Shown: positions 20,979-51,921 of the stretch, piece by piece | Position numbering within the stretch: position 1 is the stretch's first letter | Layout of the letters: each line of letters begins with the position of its first letter | DNA from: Bacillota bacterium | GTDB lineage: Bacteria > Bacillota > JAAYKD01 | Reading direction: 5' to 3' | NCBI GenBank assembly: GCA_963666425.2 | Contig: OY762825.2 | Coordinates: forward strand, 512,001-576,000 | DNA length: 64,000 bases | The notes under the pieces: generated by a model | Told to the model about the DNA's origin: nothing | What the model saw: only the letters and a program-made list of their open reading frames with translations | Databases searched by the model: none | Program-made: the position numbers and the translations under genes

Positions 20979-21455
20979 TCATCGAGGGGAATAATGCTCA
21001 TCGTCTTCCCACTTCAATGGATTTTCATCGATATATTGCCAAACGCCTAAATATCCTTTTTCGTCGCGGATGACATGATCATAAAACGACTTTTGCCAAA
21101 TTTCCGCATTCGGATTTGTTTCGTGAATTCGTTTGGAAACACCAGCTTTATACAAACCAACAATGGTAGACAAATTTGGAAACGATGTTGATTGTTCCAC
21201 TGTATCGTTGCACCCGATGATAACGATTGCATGCACATGATTTGGCATAATAACATATTTATCAATTTGCACACCATCAAAATGCGCTGCAATTTTCAAG
21301 ATTTCCGCTTCGGCAATTTCACCATATTCGTTGAGCGCATTAATCCCGCCGAATAAATGCGCTTTTTTGTGTGTGCATAGAGTAATATGGTAATAGTTTT
21401 GATTTGAATAATCATAATCCGGCAATCGAGGTAATTTTCGATTTGGCAAGTCCAT
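20979..21455 (-). CDS. REP-associated tyrosine transposase (RAYT/TnpA-REP, Y1 HUH)
   Basis: RKLPRLPDYDYS, YHITLCT, MPNHVH (HUH), WQKSFYDHVIRDE, YIDENP (catalytic Tyr); GGAGG RBS; flanked by GTAG REPs. Confidence 0.93.
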   Translation of the reverse strand: MDLPNRKLPRLPDYDYSNQNYYHITLCTHKKAHLFGGINALNEYGEIAEAEILKIAAHFDGVQIDKYVIMPNHVHAIVIIGCNDTVEQSTSFPNLSTIVGLYKAGVSKRIHETNPNAEIWQKSFYDHVIRDEKGYLGVWQYIDENPLKWEDDEHYSPR

Positions 21456-21529
21456 ACAGTAAAACCTCCGATTCGAAACGGGAAAACGTGGGAGCGGGGC
21501 GAGGTTGTGGTAAAACAAGACTGTGGGGC

Positions 21530-22126
21530 GAAGAACGAGGAACGAGGAACGAGGAACGAGGAACGGGGAACGGGGAACGAGGAACGAGGAACGAGGAACG
21601 GGGAACGAGGAACGGGGAACGAGGAACGAGGAACGAGGAACGAGGAACGGGGAACGAGGAACGAGGAACGGGGAACGGGGTTACGCGGAATGGTCAAGAC
21701 CATTCCCTACCTTGCACAATGTTCATTACAAATCTGCAATGGTATATGTGAGGGCTACAAGGTACGAGGTTACAAAGAACAAGGAACAAAGAACGGGGAA
21801 CGAGGAACGAGGTGACGCGGAATGGTCAAGACCATTCCCTACCTTGCACAATGTTCATTACAAGTCTGCAATGGATGTATAAAACGCCAAAATACATTGG
21901 CAAAACGATAAATCACGCCAAACAGCATTGGGAAACCATCAATATACATTAAAAAACCGATTAACCACATTGGGCAGATGTAGGGAACGGTCTTGACCGT
22001 TCCGTAACGTCCCGCATTAATTAGCTTAATAGGCTAACGGGTAAGTGGCATGGGAACGAGGGATGAAGAACGAGGTTATGGGGAACGAGGAACGGGGTTA
22101 CGCGGAATGGTCAAGACCATTCCCTA
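21530..22126. repeat. REP cluster E: about 21 x 7-mer (GAGGAAC/GGGGAAC) and 4 REPs
   Basis: 7-mer array 21530-21676; REPs 21685>, 21817>, <21980, 22102> (truncated at CTA). Confidence 0.93.
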
Positions 22127-34979: not shown

Positions 34980-36355
34980 GTTACGCGGAACGGTCAAGAC
35001 CGTTCCCTACAATTTACACAATGTGATATCAGCAACACAAAATGATGATGTTACGTTGGGATGGGGTTAGGTTGGGACATCAATTGTTTTCAGCACCAAG
35101 CGATGGAATAATTATAGCACAGCGCAGTAGCAGGATAGCGCAAATGTAGGGAACGGTCTTGACCGTTCCGTACGGTTTAATTACCACCGCGAAATGATGA
35201 AGCCACGCATGGACATCAATTGTTTTCAGTACCAAGCGATGGAATAATTATAGCATATGCAATCGTAGGATAGCGCAAATGTAGGGAACGGTCTTGACCG
35301 TTCCGCACAGTTTAATTACCACCGCAAAATAGTGGAGCTACGTTGGGACATCAATTGTTTTCAGTACCAAGCGATGGAATAATTATAGCATATGCAATCA
35401 TAGGATAGCACAAATGTAGGGAACGGTCTTGACCGTTCCGCACAGTTTAATTACCACCGCAAAATGATTGAGCCACGCAGAGACGGAGTTACGCGGAACG
35501 GTCAAGACCGTTCCGCACAGTTTAATTACCACCGCAAAACGATGGAGCCACGCAGAGACGGAGTTACGCGGAACGGTCAAGACCGTTCCGCACAGTTTAA
35601 TTACCACCGCAAAATGATGAGGTTACGCATGGACATCAATTGTTTTCAGTACCAAGCGATGGAATAATTATAGCACAGCGCAATCGTAGGATGGCGCAAA
35701 TGTAGGGAACGGTCTTGACCGTTCCGCACAGTTTAATTACCACCGCAAAATGATGAAACCAAGCTGGGACGGAGTTACGTTGGGATGGAGTTACGCAGAG
35801 ACGAAGTACGCGGAACGGTCAAGACCGTTCCCTACAATTTACACAATGTTATATCAACACCGAAAAGCAATTGAGCTACGCATGGACATCAATTGTTTTC
35901 AGCACCAAGCGATGGAATAATTATAGCATAGTGCGAAAGCAGGATGGCGCAAATGTAGGGAACGGTCTTGACCGTTCCGCACAGTTTAATTACCACCGCA
36001 AAATAGTGGGGCCACGCTGGGACGGGGTTACGCGGAACGGTCAAGACCGTTCCCTACAATTTACACAATGTTATATCAACACCGGAAAGCAATGGAGTCA
36101 CGCTGGGACGGAGTTACGCGGAACGGTCAAGACCGTTCCCTACAATTTACACAATGTGATATCAGCTACACGAAATGATGATGTTACGTTGGGACGGGGT
36201 TACGCGGAACGGTCAAGACTGTTCCCTACTATTTACACAAAGTAAAATCAACACCGCAAAACGATGAGGTTACGCGGAGACGAAGTACGCAGAGACGGAG
36301 TCACGCGGAACGGTCAAGACCGTTCCCTACAATTTACACAATGTGATATCAGCAA
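34980..36355. repeat. REP cluster G (13 REP-type palindromes) between priA and def
   Basis: 34985, 35146, 35281, 35416, 35493, 35568, 35702, 35810, 35955, 36032, 36118, 36204, 36305; all carry the C stem variant. Confidence 0.93.
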
Positions 36356-48169: not shown

Positions 48170-48958
48170 AATGGGGCGGCGGAGTGGCGGAGACGGGGTA
48201 CGCGGAAGGGTTCTGTGGGATAGCAGTTGCATTTTCAGCACTAAGCGATGGAATAATGATTGCATAGCGCATAACGATGGAATGGCGCCAGAACATCCAT
48301 CACATTTTCAGCGCCATGCGATGGAATAATGATTGCATAACGCAAAACAATGAAGCTACACCAGGACGGGGCACGCGGAACGGTCAAGACCGTTCCCTAC
48401 CTTGCGAGTTGGTTGAAGTAACACCGCAATGTAATGAAGCTACGCCGGGAACGCAGGGACGCCGGGACGGGGCACGCGGAACGGTCAAGACCGTTCCCTA
48501 CCTTGCGAGTTGGTTGAAGTAACACCACAAAACAATGAAGCTACGCCAAAACGGGTTACGCGGAACGGTCAAGACCGTTCCCTACCTTGCGAGTTGGTTG
48601 AAGTAACATCGCAATGTTGCGTGTAGGTTGAAGTAACACCGCAATACAATGAAGCTACGCCGGGACGGGGCACGCGGAACGGTCAAGACCGTTCCCTACC
48701 TTGCGAGTTGGTTGAAGTAATACCGCAATGTAATGAAGCTACGCCGGGGCATCCACCACATTTTCAGCACCAAGCGATGGAATAATGATTGCATAACGCA
48801 ATTGCAGGTTGGAGCAATGGAATAATGATTGCATAGCACGAAATAGGTTGGAGCAAATGTAGGGAACGGTCTTGACCGTTCCGCACGGTTCAATTAACAC
48901 CGCAGAACGATAGAGTTACGCCAGGACGGGGCACGCGGAACGGTCAAGACCGTTCCCT
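48170..48958. repeat. REP cluster H (6 REPs, last one split by IS110; cluster flank resumes at 50455-50535)
   Basis: 48375>, 48476>, 48560>, 48674>, <48859, 48935>; flank cttgcgagttggttgaagtaac. Confidence 0.92.
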
Positions 48959-49064
48959 CGTATATACTAGTAGTGCCAAGGTAACTCATTTACAGGGTAC
49001 AGGAAGCGAGCCAAAGCCACTCTTTAAGTATCCAAGGGGTTTGCCCTTTGTGGTATAATTTTGT

Positions 49065-49200
49065 CAGGCAGAGGTCAACGTACTGTTCCCTGGGAATCGT
49101 TCCTGTGATGTAGAGTGTTGCCTCTGATCTGACAGAAATCTGCGTATTGGCTGGATAGGGTAAAATCCTTGTATTTCACGCGAGGTTGCAGCTGTCAGCG
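49065..49200 (+). ncRNA. Putative IS110 bridge RNA (target-binding and donor-binding loops)
   Basis: Two stem-enclosed internal loops with guides CTGTTCCCT/GTAG (REP target) and TGGCTGG/CGAG (donor junction). Confidence 0.78.
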
Positions 49201-49248
49201 TCAGAGAGATCATCCTTTGCCGCATTCCAGTTTGAGGAGTTGCTGTAA

Positions 49249-50421
49249 ATGATTACTTTTGGCGTAGACATCGGTAAATTCCGTCACCAGGCGATCGCGG
49301 TGGACGCCAGTGGTCAAGCGCTGGCTCCCTCGTTTGCATTTGAAAATTCCGAAGAGGGCTTTCAATTGTTTTTGCAGAAGGTCGCTTTTTACCAAAAGCA
49401 AGATGCAATTTGCGTCGGCATGGAAGCCACCGGTCATTACTGGCTGAATTTTTATTGTGTTTTACTCGATTTAGGAATTGAATTGCATGTGGTCAATCCC
49501 CTGCTCACCGACGCCATACGGCGCATGTCTGTCCGTAAAACCAAGACGGATACGGTGGATTGCGGTTATATCGCGGATGTGATCCGCATGGGACGTTATT
49601 CCGACGTAGCGGTACAAACGGAGGATGTCCAGAATTTACGCGAGTTATGCCGTTTCCGCTGTTCTCTGGTTGATGAGATTGCAAAGCACAAAAACCATGT
49701 AATTGGCGTGCTGGATCACCTTTTTCCGGAATATCACAAGCTGTTTTCAGATATTTTCGGTAAAACTTCGCTGGAGTTGCTCAGCAAGTATCCGTCACCG
49801 GATGCCATTCTGAAGCTCGGTACAAAGCGGTTGGCTGATTTTTTAGCGAAGCATTCCCGCGGCAGTTTCGGTGAGGAAAAAGCGCTCGAGATCCGCAGCG
49901 CCTGCAGACACACTGTTGGTGTGAATAGAGCGAACGCTGCTCTATGCTTTGAATTACACCAAACCGTGGATCTGATTCAATTCATTGAAGAACAGATTGA
50001 CGCAATTGAGAATAAGATTGAGCAGATCTATTCCCAATGTGAATGCTATCTGGATACCATTATTGGTGTTGGAGTCACCTCGGCTGCGGTGATCTACTCG
50101 GAAATCGGCAATATTGATAATTTCGAAAATCCAAAGAAATTGGCGGCATTTGCCGGTATTGACCCTTCGATTAAGCAATCCGGTAATTTCACTTCAACGC
50201 ACAACACGATGTCGAAGCGAGGCTCACCTTATCTGCGCAGAGCGCTCTGGAATGCCGCAACGGTTGCCGCGCAAAAAGATCCGGTCATGTCTGCTTTTTA
50301 CCAGAAGAAACGCGACGAAGGAAAAGATTATATGACGGCAATTGGAGCTGTTACACATAAATTATGCAACATTGTTTTCGCTGTTTTAAGGGATAAAAAG
50401 CCTTATGTTCCCAGAATATAA
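49249..50421 (+). CDS. IS110-family DEDD recombinase/transposase
   Basis: GVDIGK, MEATGHY, KTDTVD, AFAGIDP..KQSG (catalytic Ser), SKRGSPYLR. Confidence 0.96.
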   Translation: MITFGVDIGKFRHQAIAVDASGQALAPSFAFENSEEGFQLFLQKVAFYQKQDAICVGMEATGHYWLNFYCVLLDLGIELHVVNPLLTDAIRRMSVRKTKTDTVDCGYIADVIRMGRYSDVAVQTEDVQNLRELCRFRCSLVDEIAKHKNHVIGVLDHLFPEYHKLFSDIFGKTSLELLSKYPSPDAILKLGTKRLADFLAKHSRGSFGEEKALEIRSACRHTVGVNRANAALCFELHQTVDLIQFIEEQIDAIENKIEQIYSQCECYLDTIIGVGVTSAAVIYSEIGNIDNFENPKKLAAFAGIDPSIKQSGNFTSTHNTMSKRGSPYLRRALWNAATVAAQKDPVMSAFYQKKRDEGKDYMTAIGAVTHKLCNIVFAVLRDKKPYVPRI

Positions 50422-50541
50422 TTTTCGTTTTGCCACTTGACGTTTGATAGCTGGCTACCTTGCGAGTTGGTTGAAGTAACACCGCAATATTGCGAGTTGG
50501 TTGAAGTAACGCCGTAAAACGATGAAGCTACGCCTTATCCC

Positions 50542-51921
50542 TTACGCGACGATACTTCTCACCCAGCTGTCGGTTCTCAGCATGATAAAACCGATGACCG
50601 ATTTGATACCGTCGGCCATGTTCACGATCAGGTAAACAGTCACAATCGGCAGTAAGGTATAGCGTGAAAGAAAAAAGGCCAAAGGGACGCTGACGATACA
50701 GGTGAAAACACTGTCAAAGAAAAAGGTGATGATCGTTTTGCCGCCGGAGCGCAGTGTAAAGTAAACACTGTGGTTAAAGGCGTGCAGCGGGAAGGCCATG
50801 GCCGACACAATCAGGAAGCTGGATGCCATTTGGCGAACCGCAGCTTCTGTATTATAAATCAGCGGAATATAGGAAGAAAACAGGGCTAATAGACAACCCA
50901 GCACCACGGAAGTGCCGACATTGAGGAAAATCAATTTATGATCGGTATCTTTGGCTTTAGCGAAATCACCAGCTCCCAACTGCTGCCCGACCAAAACGCC
51001 AACCGCATTGCCCATCGCCATAAAAAAGATGGCAAATAGTTGAGAAATCGTGGATGAAATATTCAGCGCGGCTACCACTGTGATACCGCGGAAGGCATAG
51101 TTGGCGGTGAGTGAGGCAGTCGCGATCGACCAGACAAATTCGTTGAGCAGTAAGGGAGAACCTTTGATGGCAATGCCTTTGAGGATTTTCGCCGGGATGT
51201 AGGCACTTTGGAAGGCTTTACGCACAAAGTAGAAATTGTCTCGCTGCAGCCAGGTTGCCCCAACAATGAAACCTGCTTCTACCAAACGGGATATTACGGT
51301 GGCTATGGCGGCTCCCTCTACGCCCAAACGCGGGAAACCGAAGCTGCCAAAAATGAGCAGGTAGTTGCCGACCAAGTTGGTCAAAACAGCCAGGATGCTG
51401 CCGGTCATGGCAATGACGGTGTTGCCGCTTTCACGTAAGGTGGAAGAAAAACATTGCGAAATCACAAATGGCACGATACCCCAAAGCATGATCTTGAGAT
51501 ATTGCCTGGCTAACGTCATGGTTAACGCCAGATCCGCCGCGTCCCCCGCTGTCTCATTCAGGAAGAGATGAATCAATTGCGTGTCCCAAATATTGAAGAC
51601 CAAAATCGCCGCAAAACAAATGGCAATACCAAAGAGAATTTTGTAGCGGAATGTGTGCATGACGCCTTCGTAATCCTTGCGGCCAAAGAATTGAGCCGAG
51701 AAAATAGAGGCGCCGGAAAGTCCACCGAAAATTGTAACATTTAAGACGAAGAAAAATTGACTGCAGATTGCCACGGCAGAAATCGCTTCTGTGCCGAGCC
51801 GACCCACCATGACATTATCCAGTAAATTGACAATACTGGTGATTCCTTGCTGAATGATCATGGGAACGACCAGCAGCAGGACCATCTTATAAAAGGCTTT
51901 ATTACCGATAAATTTTTTCAT
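50542..51921 (-). CDS. MATE family efflux transporter
   Basis: DNVMVGRLG, About 12 TM, GVEGAAIATVISR. Confidence 0.93.
   Translation of the reverse strand: MKKFIGNKAFYKMVLLLVVPMIIQQGITSIVNLLDNVMVGRLGTEAISAVAICSQFFFVLNVTIFGGLSGASIFSAQFFGRKDYEGVMHTFRYKILFGIAICFAAILVFNIWDTQLIHLFLNETAGDAADLALTMTLARQYLKIMLWGIVPFVISQCFSSTLRESGNTVIAMTGSILAVLTNLVGNYLLIFGSFGFPRLGVEGAAIATVISRLVEAGFIVGATWLQRDNFYFVRKAFQSAYIPAKILKGIAIKGSPLLLNEFVWSIATASLTANYAFRGITVVAALNISSTISQLFAIFFMAMGNAVGVLVGQQLGAGDFAKAKDTDHKLIFLNVGTSVVLGCLLALFSSYIPLIYNTEAAVRQMASSFLIVSAMAFPLHAFNHSVYFTLRSGGKTIITFFFDSVFTCIVSVPLAFFLSRYTLLPIVTVYLIVNMADGIKSVIGFIMLRTDSWVRSIVA

Follow-up and report, generated by a model that had tools for sequence, protein, structure and literature searches.

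Introduction

The targeting of repetitive extragenic palindromic (REP) sequences by IS621 and other elements of the IS110 family was reported in 2003 and 2006 (cited in PMC11208160), and the bridge-RNA mechanism followed in 2024 (PMC11208160, PMC11208158). As these last two papers describe the pairing rule, each RNA loop carries on its 5' side the top-strand sequence of the left half and the core, and on its 3' side that of the core and the right half in reverse complement. A 2026 preprint on ISPpu10 presents a stem-loop encoded by the target as an extra determinant of specificity beside base pairing, a requirement shown for ISPpu10 only. As to the repeats themselves, a GTAG head is described as typical of REPs associated with REP-associated tyrosine transposases (RAYT) (PMC2817692). 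Here we analyse an IS110-family insertion sequence in a window of 64,000 nucleotides, by which we mean the whole stretch of DNA studied (contig OY762825.2 of assembly GCA_963666425.2, Bacillota bacterium, positions 512,001 to 576,000 of the forward strand; positions below count from the first letter of the window). We argue, with a probability of roughly 0.9, that it is a functional-looking element of the bridge-RNA type, and that every copy lies at the same spot of a REP probably owing to a match between the element's own guide RNA and the end of the REP hairpins of its host.

Results

Ten copies share one insertion site

The element spans 48959-50454 on the + strand, that is 1496 bp between two CT cores (48957-58 and 50455-56), and is laid out with its target as follows.

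48937 to 48958, + strand: left half of the target, made of the REP arms GGAACGGTC (48937-45) and GACCGTTCC (48948-56) and then the CT core (48957-58)
48959 to 49248, + strand: left non-coding end (LE), 290 bp, starting with CGTATATAC, the right donor half; a CGTATA(A/T)T start is conserved in orthologues
49249 to 50421, + strand: recombinase gene, 390 aa, one long open reading frame (ORF), intact in 10/10 copies
50422 to 50454, + strand: right non-coding end (RE), 33 bp, with a TTGACG -35-like box (50437-42) and the left donor half TAGCTGG (50448-54)
50455 to 50461, + strand: second CT core and right half of the target (CTACCTT), in which CTAC is complementary to the GTAG head of the REP

An earlier reading of the window made from its letters alone (hereafter the original prediction) had placed an insertion sequence at CC-CT|AC of a REP with CT at both ends, and all of its coordinates were confirmed. 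The genome (3.2 Mb in 18 contigs) holds ten full-length copies that are 99-100% identical and account for all of its PF01548 matches; they vary at 27 positions and fall into about three haplotypes plus mosaics. Mapping these copies, a check proposed with the original prediction, put 10/10 at REP CT|AC and none elsewhere: the site is the same every time, ...GGAAC[GA]GTCAAGAC[CT]GTTCC-CT / IS / CT-AC, inside the REP hairpin, and the left junction reads ...GAC[CT]GTTCC-CT|CGTATATAC in each of them. The left REP arm is CCGTTCC in eight copies and CTGTTCC in two, and the right flank is CTACAT (CTACATT or CTACATC) in seven and CTACCT (CTACCTT) in three, while beyond the REP the flanks differ from locus to locus. 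A CT core shared by both junctions and a fixed target, C[CT]GTTCC-CT-AC, are features of the IS110 family and were found in 10/10 copies.

Paired copies lie on contig C1 at 92801/94821, 706185/707993, 1537838/1540109 and 1590171/1591869, in the same orientation and with 200-775 bp between the members. The same contig carries a diverged remnant (L011, C1:1593457-1593539, 81 to about 100 nt) that holds the first part of a left end, without the bridge RNA, and adjoins a GGAATGG-type REP opposite a full copy; the remnant also occurs in a contig of a sequencing run labelled organism B. Near-identical copies of the element were found in runs under two coded organism labels, and parts of it in freshwater, wastewater, landfill, soil and sludge metagenomes.

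The recombinase

The predicted assignment of the 390-aa protein to the IS110 recombinases held. PF01548 (DEDD_Tnp_IS110) matches residues 5-160 with E 2.5e-40, PF02371, the C-terminal Tnp domain, matches with E 8.2e-26, and the NCBIfam model NF033542, 'IS110 family RNA-guided transposase', gives 262.1 bits against a cut-off of 140. Similarity also extends to two recombinases of known structure, those of IS621 and ISCro4 (phmmer E about 1e-20, over parts of the protein), and alignment to these two shows the catalytic positions D7, E59, D101, D104 and S311-G312 to be present. E60, D102/D105 and S241-G242 of IS621, whose numbering and roles are given in PMC11208158, correspond to the motifs MEATG and KTDTVD and to the Ser-Gly within KQSGN.

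A conserved putative RNA with two stem-enclosed loops in the left end

The left end contains the following features of a predicted bridge RNA.

49051 to 49059, + strand: promoter-like box of extended -10 type, TGgTATAAT, placed 7 nt ahead of the first stem of the predicted RNA
49066 to 49200, + strand: predicted bridge RNA, about 135 nt, placed by fold, conservation and covariation, with both ends putative
49069 to 49126, + strand: target-binding loop module, with the outer stem cagagg(t)caac 49069-79 / gttgcctctg 49117-26 and an inner hairpin at 49092-49104
49129 to 49198, + strand: donor-binding loop module, with the stems ctgacag 49129-35 / ctgtcag 49192-98 and ctgc 49140-43 / gcag 49188-91 and an inner hairpin at about 49155-72

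The two stem-enclosed loops had been drawn in the original prediction; all of their stems lie where it put them, and the minimum free energy fold of 49066-49200 gives exactly these two modules. Conservation was assessed on a scan of species-representative genomes, which returned 80 loci with relatives at 43-64% protein identity, nearly all from Bacillota/Clostridia records. At least 300 nt of upstream sequence and a start codon were available for 65 of the 80 loci, leaving 62 unique left ends, and 61 of these were aligned by MAFFT with no structure input (L077 was excluded for a large insertion). In this alignment the proposed covariation of the stems was borne out. The outer stem of the target loop is paired in 88% of cells, and 7/10 of its pairs show changes on both sides; for the inner stem of this loop the figures are 91% and 4/4, and for the 4-bp stem of the donor loop 97% and 4/4. 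Taken over all stems, 71% of cells are paired as against 61.0 +/- 0.6 in shuffles, a value that 0/500 shuffles reach, and the covariation score is 0.399 as against 0.205 for shuffled alignments and 0.10-0.22 with slid partners. Two helices were misaligned by MAFFT and are paired in 40% and 22% of cells. For the 7-bp outer stem of the donor loop a duplex energy comparison in the 56/61 sequences with both segments gave -11.1 kcal/mol for cognate and -5.2 kcal/mol for non-cognate partners, and 0/5000 permutations were as low; support for the inner donor hairpin is less strong, 40/61 sequences folding better than their shuffles by over 2 kcal/mol. An RNA from a non-coding end with two stem-enclosed loops, conserved with covariation in three helices at 88-97% pairing and in a fourth by the duplex test, is what characterizes IS110 bridge RNAs.

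A TGn(G/T)ATAAT box stands at the same place in 40/62 orthologue left ends, and several more were cut off there by the extraction limit. A consensus promoter scan listed neither this box nor any other + strand promoter in the left end; the box was missed because its -35 region is weak.

Loop guides follow the flanking DNA

Four stretches of the two loops can be assigned as guides.

49083 to 49091, + strand: left target guide (LTG), CUGUUCC+CU (CUGUUCCCU; as DNA CTGTTCCCT), from the flank match in the copies; the homologous 9-mer covaries with the left flank
49107 to 49113, + strand: right target guide (RTG), GAUGUAG (including ATGTAG, 49108-13), reverse complement of CTACATC; the homologous 7-mer covaries with the right flank
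49148 to 49154, + strand: left donor guide (LDG), UGGCUGG, followed by AU at 49155-56 (together TGGCTGGAT, 49148-56), set against the donor right end TAGCTGG (50448-54)
49180 to 49184, + strand: right donor guide (RDG), proximal part GCGAG (including CGAG, 49181-84), reverse complement of CTCGC; the donor is CT+CGT, so that the last pair is G:T

The LTG CUGUUCCCU is identical to the left flank and core in the 2/10 copies that sit in the minor REP variant and forms one U:G wobble in the 8/10 that sit in the major one. The original prediction had it match a REP variant of the window exactly, and the variant with CTGTTCCCTAC is indeed present (11-mer at 36219). In copy C1:706185-707680 the T of LTG position 2 (equivalent to window 49084) is replaced by C, and the guide of this copy thus matches the major variant, CCGTTCC, exactly.

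Whether guides and flanks go together across loci was assessed by setting the ends of the elements from donor-side words only and then comparing the target guides with the flanks so defined. In a first set the left boundary could be called in 54/61 loci and the right one in 52/61, the window element being among the 7 without a left call; 268/378 non-core LTG positions match the left flank as against 186 +/- 7.5 for shuffled pairing, and 171/260 RTG positions match the right flank as against 91 +/- 7. A second set of 80 metagenome loci (76 with a start codon, 65 unique left ends, 61 left and 42 right boundaries) gave 304/427 against 200.6 +/- 8.1 for the LTG and 144/210 against 72.2 +/- 6.6 for the RTG. 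None of 10,000 shuffles reached the observed value for either guide in either set, and the predicted correspondence of guides and target is upheld to that extent. Guides in the loops that match target and donor halves and covary with them across orthologues, another IS110 feature, are therefore present, with a match of the donor loop that is partial.

On the donor side the LDG matches TAGCTGG at 6/7 positions, with G opposite T as a wobble, and in orthologues GCUGG, GCCGG or GUUGG goes with right ends GCTGG, GCCGG or GTTGG. The RDG likewise reads ACGAG, ACAAG or AGUAG where the left end starts CGT, TGT or ACT, and the G:T pair at its end has an equivalent in the G161:dT12 pair of IS621 (PMC11208158). 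The donor words of the original prediction, TGGCTGGAT at 49148-56 and CGAG at 49181-84, are both present, but the last AU of the former more likely corresponds to the A131-U132 linker of IS621 than to core pairing, because this AU is invariant in the orthologue alignment whatever the core.

By analogy with the work on IS621 we infer the base-pairing geometry, a circular intermediate with a junction promoter, transcription of the RNA and activity. The 390-aa DEDD/Ser recombinase would be guided by the RNA of about 135 nt from its own left end, with its two stem-enclosed internal loops. In the target loop, the LTG and RTG would pair with the two halves of the REP target; in the donor loop, UGGCUGG and GCGAG would pair with the joined ends of the element (TAGCTGG-CT-CGT). 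Recombination at the CT core would then insert the element after CCCT and before AC in extragenic REP hairpins, at the end that bears the GTAG/CTAC tag.

The host and its REP family

The repeat of the host consists of GTAG and GGAACGGTC-TT-GACCGTTCC and occurs in about 180 copies, mostly outside ORFs. With the insertion sequences removed in silico the genome holds 182 sites C[CT][GA]TTCCCTAC, so that a short GTAG-headed palindrome in high copy number, as expected of a REP, is present; 118 sites are of the CCG variant (8 occupied), 13 of the CTG variant (2 occupied) and 51 of the CCA variant (0 occupied). Only 19/172 empty sites lie inside ORFs of at least 150 aa, as against 83.5% of the genome that lies in such ORFs (mechanical ORFs, not an annotation), and the repeat is therefore extragenic. 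The original prediction spoke of dozens of available sites in the window; empty CCG/CTG sites are numerous, 121 in the genome, but the window has 22 by exact match to C[CT]GTTCCCTAC.

The arrays at window 48390-48869 and 35000-36320 are built of units about 85-115 bp long, in which a further conserved word, such as CTACCTTGCGAGTTGGTTGAAGTAA or CTACAATTTACACAATGT, comes after every REP. REP sites occur in no more than about a dozen 64-kb bins, all on contig C1. An ORF of 179 aa at 20979-21518 on the - strand, inside a REP cluster, encodes a RAYT-like Y1/HUH transposase with an HVH motif, which scores 28.6 bits with PF01797 (cut-off 23) and 68.8 bits with NF047646 (below the cut-off of 80); REPs stand on both sides of it (at about 20743, 20853, 21685, 21817 and 21980) in two variants, of GGAACGG and GGAATGG type. 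Two more Y1 genes, of 245 aa each, are found at C8 and C1:435734. A tandem 7-nt repeat (GAACGAG/GAACGGG)n, whose unit resembles the REP arm GGAACGG, adjoins REPs at about 21530-21680, and also at 21780-21810 and 22060-22100.

The predicted Firmicute (Bacillota-like) host agrees with the markers found. A Gram-positive-type PolC scores over its cut-off, and LpxC and Spo0A_C have no match in the host genome, absences that are no proofs since the genome is 98.5% complete by its record. This marker set would fit a non-sporulating member of the Bacillota.

Targets of the relatives

The nearest relatives compared at the DNA level, L012, L095 and L096, are 61-64% identical, and all have an RTG ending in GUAG. 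The L095 site is GGGACGG-AAAAC-CCGTCCC-CT|AC, which its LTG CCGUCCCCU matches at 9/9 positions, and the L096 site is GTAG-GGGCGAAC-ACA-GTTCGCCC-CT|AC, matched at 8/9 by GUCGCCCCU; for L012 the match between LTG and flank is poor. There are relatives at 74-92% protein identity, and the metagenome scan returned none closer than 64%. Most relatives (loci L013-L091 and L097-L174) have an LTG ...(C)ACCTCCT and a site ...CCTCCT|CGTATAAT. Among the 102 loci with a recognisable left-end start the flank ends in CTCCT in 55, a CAT lies 3-10 nt upstream in 33 of these 55, and the other strand has an open frame in 28 of those 33, which places the element immediately before a gene, at a Shine-Dalgarno sequence. 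L033, from a Succinivibrio record (46% identity), sits at the foot of the hairpin GGAACCG-TGCG-CGGTTCC-CCT|CG; its LTG matches and its RTG is not GUAG.

From this distribution it is tempting, though on balance doubtful, to regard the window element, L012, L095 and L096 as a REP-tracking lineage in a clade that is otherwise mostly found at Shine-Dalgarno-like ...CCTCCT sites, a lineage in which the RTG would be fixed on the GTAG/CTAC tag of RAYT-type REPs and the LTG rewritten for the hairpin arm of each host (CUGUUCC, CCGUCCC, GUCGCCC). In the genome studied here the LTG has U in 9 copies and C in 1, and the position that varies is exactly that of the REP polymorphism (C in 118 sites, T in 13), which suggests that guide and target may be co-evolving now. 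If such a lineage exists, integrated copies would, with a promoter belonging to the RNA itself, be able to provide guide RNA in trans.

Counter-evidence and alternative explanations

The anatomy of the element, its ten identical insertion sites, the conservation and covariation of the RNA stems and the covariation of guides with flanks are plain observations. Several other results weigh against our reading of them and are considered here together with three alternatives.

The first concern the RNA and its pairing. Folding energy is weak for 49066-49200 (z -1.7, with 14/200 shuffles folding equally well) and reaches z -2.6 for 49040-49250, the segment whose folding had been suggested with the original prediction, so that energy alone is weak evidence for an RNA. 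Rfam has no family that matches within 48500-50900 at E up to 10, apart from sub-threshold microRNA matches on the REP hairpin only. The right flank of the window copy itself, CTACCTT, agrees with the 7-nt RTG at 5/7 positions and with ATGTAG at 5/6; the predicted complementarity of ATGTAG to CTAC(AT) is thus complete in the 7/10 copies with CTACAT, but not in the copy from which it was read. Donor pairing is imperfect as well, since the LDG includes one wobble and lacks core pairing and the RDG comprises 5 assigned nucleotides. For the distal RDG and the handshake positions of the target loop, no convincing register was found by analogy with IS621, and A49114, which follows the RTG, would face a G at donor position 7, with which it cannot pair; most relatives carry an extra T in the right end and lack this mismatch.

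The second concern the choice among sites. Occupancy is not significantly different between the CTG and CCG variants (2/13 as against 8/118, p = 0.26) or by right-flank variant (p = 0.34), and the absence of copies from the CCA variant, which would require two wobbles, is not significant either (0/51, p = 0.064). The original prediction held that the guides tolerate both stem variants; both are occupied (8/10 CCGTTCC, 2/10 CTGTTCC), which is consistent with tolerance but does not demonstrate it, because occupancy does not differ significantly between them. These figures bear on the possibility that REP targeting is set mainly by a recombinase that recognises the REP hairpin, through its structure or through protein-DNA contacts, with the RNA match secondary or partial. 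The empty CCA sites, the position of every target here at a hairpin foot (as also in L095, L096 and L033) and the stem-loop determinant reported for ISPpu10 all speak for such recognition, and yet most members of the clade insert at ...CCTCCT sites that form no hairpin and their guides still track the flanks, so that the RNA guide is the general determinant in the clade. We therefore consider hairpin recognition an unlikely main cause.

The third concern the arrangement of the copies. Eight of the ten form pairs on the same strand with under 1 kb between the members, a number that random choice among the 131 CCG/CTG sites equals or exceeds in 0.24% of 20,000 trials (P = 0.0024). Guide matching alone is insufficient to explain how the copies are placed among matching sites, and the surplus of close neighbours may reflect local hopping inside REP arrays. 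One could go further and suppose that the REP-like words of the first loop are a captured piece of REP, or chance, and that segmental duplication of the REP arrays produced the ten copies. Such duplication would agree with the pairing of 8/10 copies inside repeat arrays, with the two pairs whose members are identical or one base apart, and with one metagenome contig that runs from the right end at 50459 back to the left end at 48934 with 44 letters between, a path that fits tandem copies or an assembly loop, not a circle. The other two of the four pairs combine clearly different haplotypes, however, the flanks beyond the REP differ between loci, and the same loop positions hold other words in orthologues, where they match those orthologues' own flanks, all of which makes this explanation extremely improbable. 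It seems that copies arise by local copying as well as by repeated hits in the same arrays.

The last concern expression and mobility, for which one more feature must be introduced.

48961 to 48966, + strand: TATATA, -10-like half of a putative junction promoter that would form only across a circle junction

Joining RE to LE would bring TTGACG (50437-42) within a 16-nt spacer of TATATA (48961-66), and the orthologue equivalent is TTGAC in the right end, a 17-nt spacer and TATAAT; this arrangement appears to resemble the junction promoter described for IS110 circles (PMC11208160). Of 24 sequencing runs listed, four were compared with the element, one of them RNA (a wastewater metatranscriptome, kept as contigs). 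One metatranscriptome contig covers 48935-49145 and another 49177-49443, and we do not count them as a transcript because the first includes REP flank and DNA carry-over is possible. No direct RE-CT-LE circle junction was seen in the four runs. Accordingly, one may ask whether the element, though recent, has become an inactive relic whose RNA is not made or whose recombinase is defective. The runs compared yielded no direct evidence of a transcript or a circle junction, the right end lacks the T of most relatives and the spacer of the junction promoter is shortened to 16 nt. Against this, the frames are intact in 10/10 copies that are 99-100% identical, the catalytic residues are present, and the right end without the T, which most of the clade has, is shared with L012, L095, L096 and L088. 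A relic therefore seems very unlikely to us, and a functional-looking element guided by its own RNA remains the reading that we retain.

Discussion

The locus offers a clean natural case in which guide rules can be read from 10 occupied and about 170 empty sites in three sequence variants. The natural U:G wobble in the LTG and the one copy with a 'corrected' guide make a simple test of mismatch tolerance and of the co-evolution of guide and target, and for engineering the element adds a further orthologue, one whose RTG is 7 nt long. The pairing of a GTAG-tagged REP with an IS110 element at CT|AC, known from E. coli, recurs here in an apparent Bacillota host. The original prediction overstated the novelty: since REP targeting by IS110 elements and bridge RNAs are both published, as set out above, the element is a further example of a known mechanism and not a new principle, and the Supplementary Data of PMC11208160 may already list its orthologue or clade.

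Among described systems, the host repeat resembles in format the REPs of PMC2817692, for example its Haemophilus parasuis entry; the hosts in the table passages of that paper are all Proteobacteria and its text does not contain the word Firmicutes. The RAYT-like protein of the window falls below the NCBIfam cut-off. ISPpu9 and ISPpu10 of Pseudomonas putida are likewise described with many copies, all in REP-type intergenic hairpins, and with a target stem-loop 5' of the paired stretch, as in the window element, although the host phylum differs. CazIS110-1 of Caloranaerobacter azorensis, which a preprint reports as experimentally studied, is also an IS110 element with a bridge RNA, in a Clostridia-type host.

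The closest comparison is with IS621 of Escherichia coli (PDB 8wt6). Both recombinases have a DEDD RuvC-like domain and a Tnp domain with the catalytic Ser-Gly, both elements have a left-end RNA made of a target loop and a donor loop whose 5' side is a top-strand copy and whose 3' side is a reverse complement, and both share the CT core and target the ...CCT|AC end of REP hairpins; the wild-type target of IS621 is ATCAGGCCTAC and its REP queries end in GGCCTAC (PMC11208160). A non-canonical G:T guide pair is tolerated by IS621 (PMC11208160, PMC11208158), and G:T or wobble pairs also occur in the guides of the window element. The two differ in host, E. coli as against an apparent member of the Bacillota, and in the length of the protein, 328 aa for the IS621 chain as against 390 aa, with a sequence similarity that is distant (phmmer E 1e-20, over parts of the protein). 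They also differ in the RNA: that of IS621 is described as starting from the junction promoter, whereas the RNA predicted here would start about 107 nt inside the 290-bp left end, behind its own extended -10 box, and shows no 5' stem-loop, unlike IS621. Furthermore, the wild-type RTG of IS621 has 4 nt as against 7 nt, and the LDG of the window element, unlike that of IS621, has no core pairing. To judge from its sequence, a promoter of the RNA's own inside a long left end, a 7-nt RTG and a donor guide without core pairing would be the points that distinguish this element within a mechanism it otherwise appears to share.

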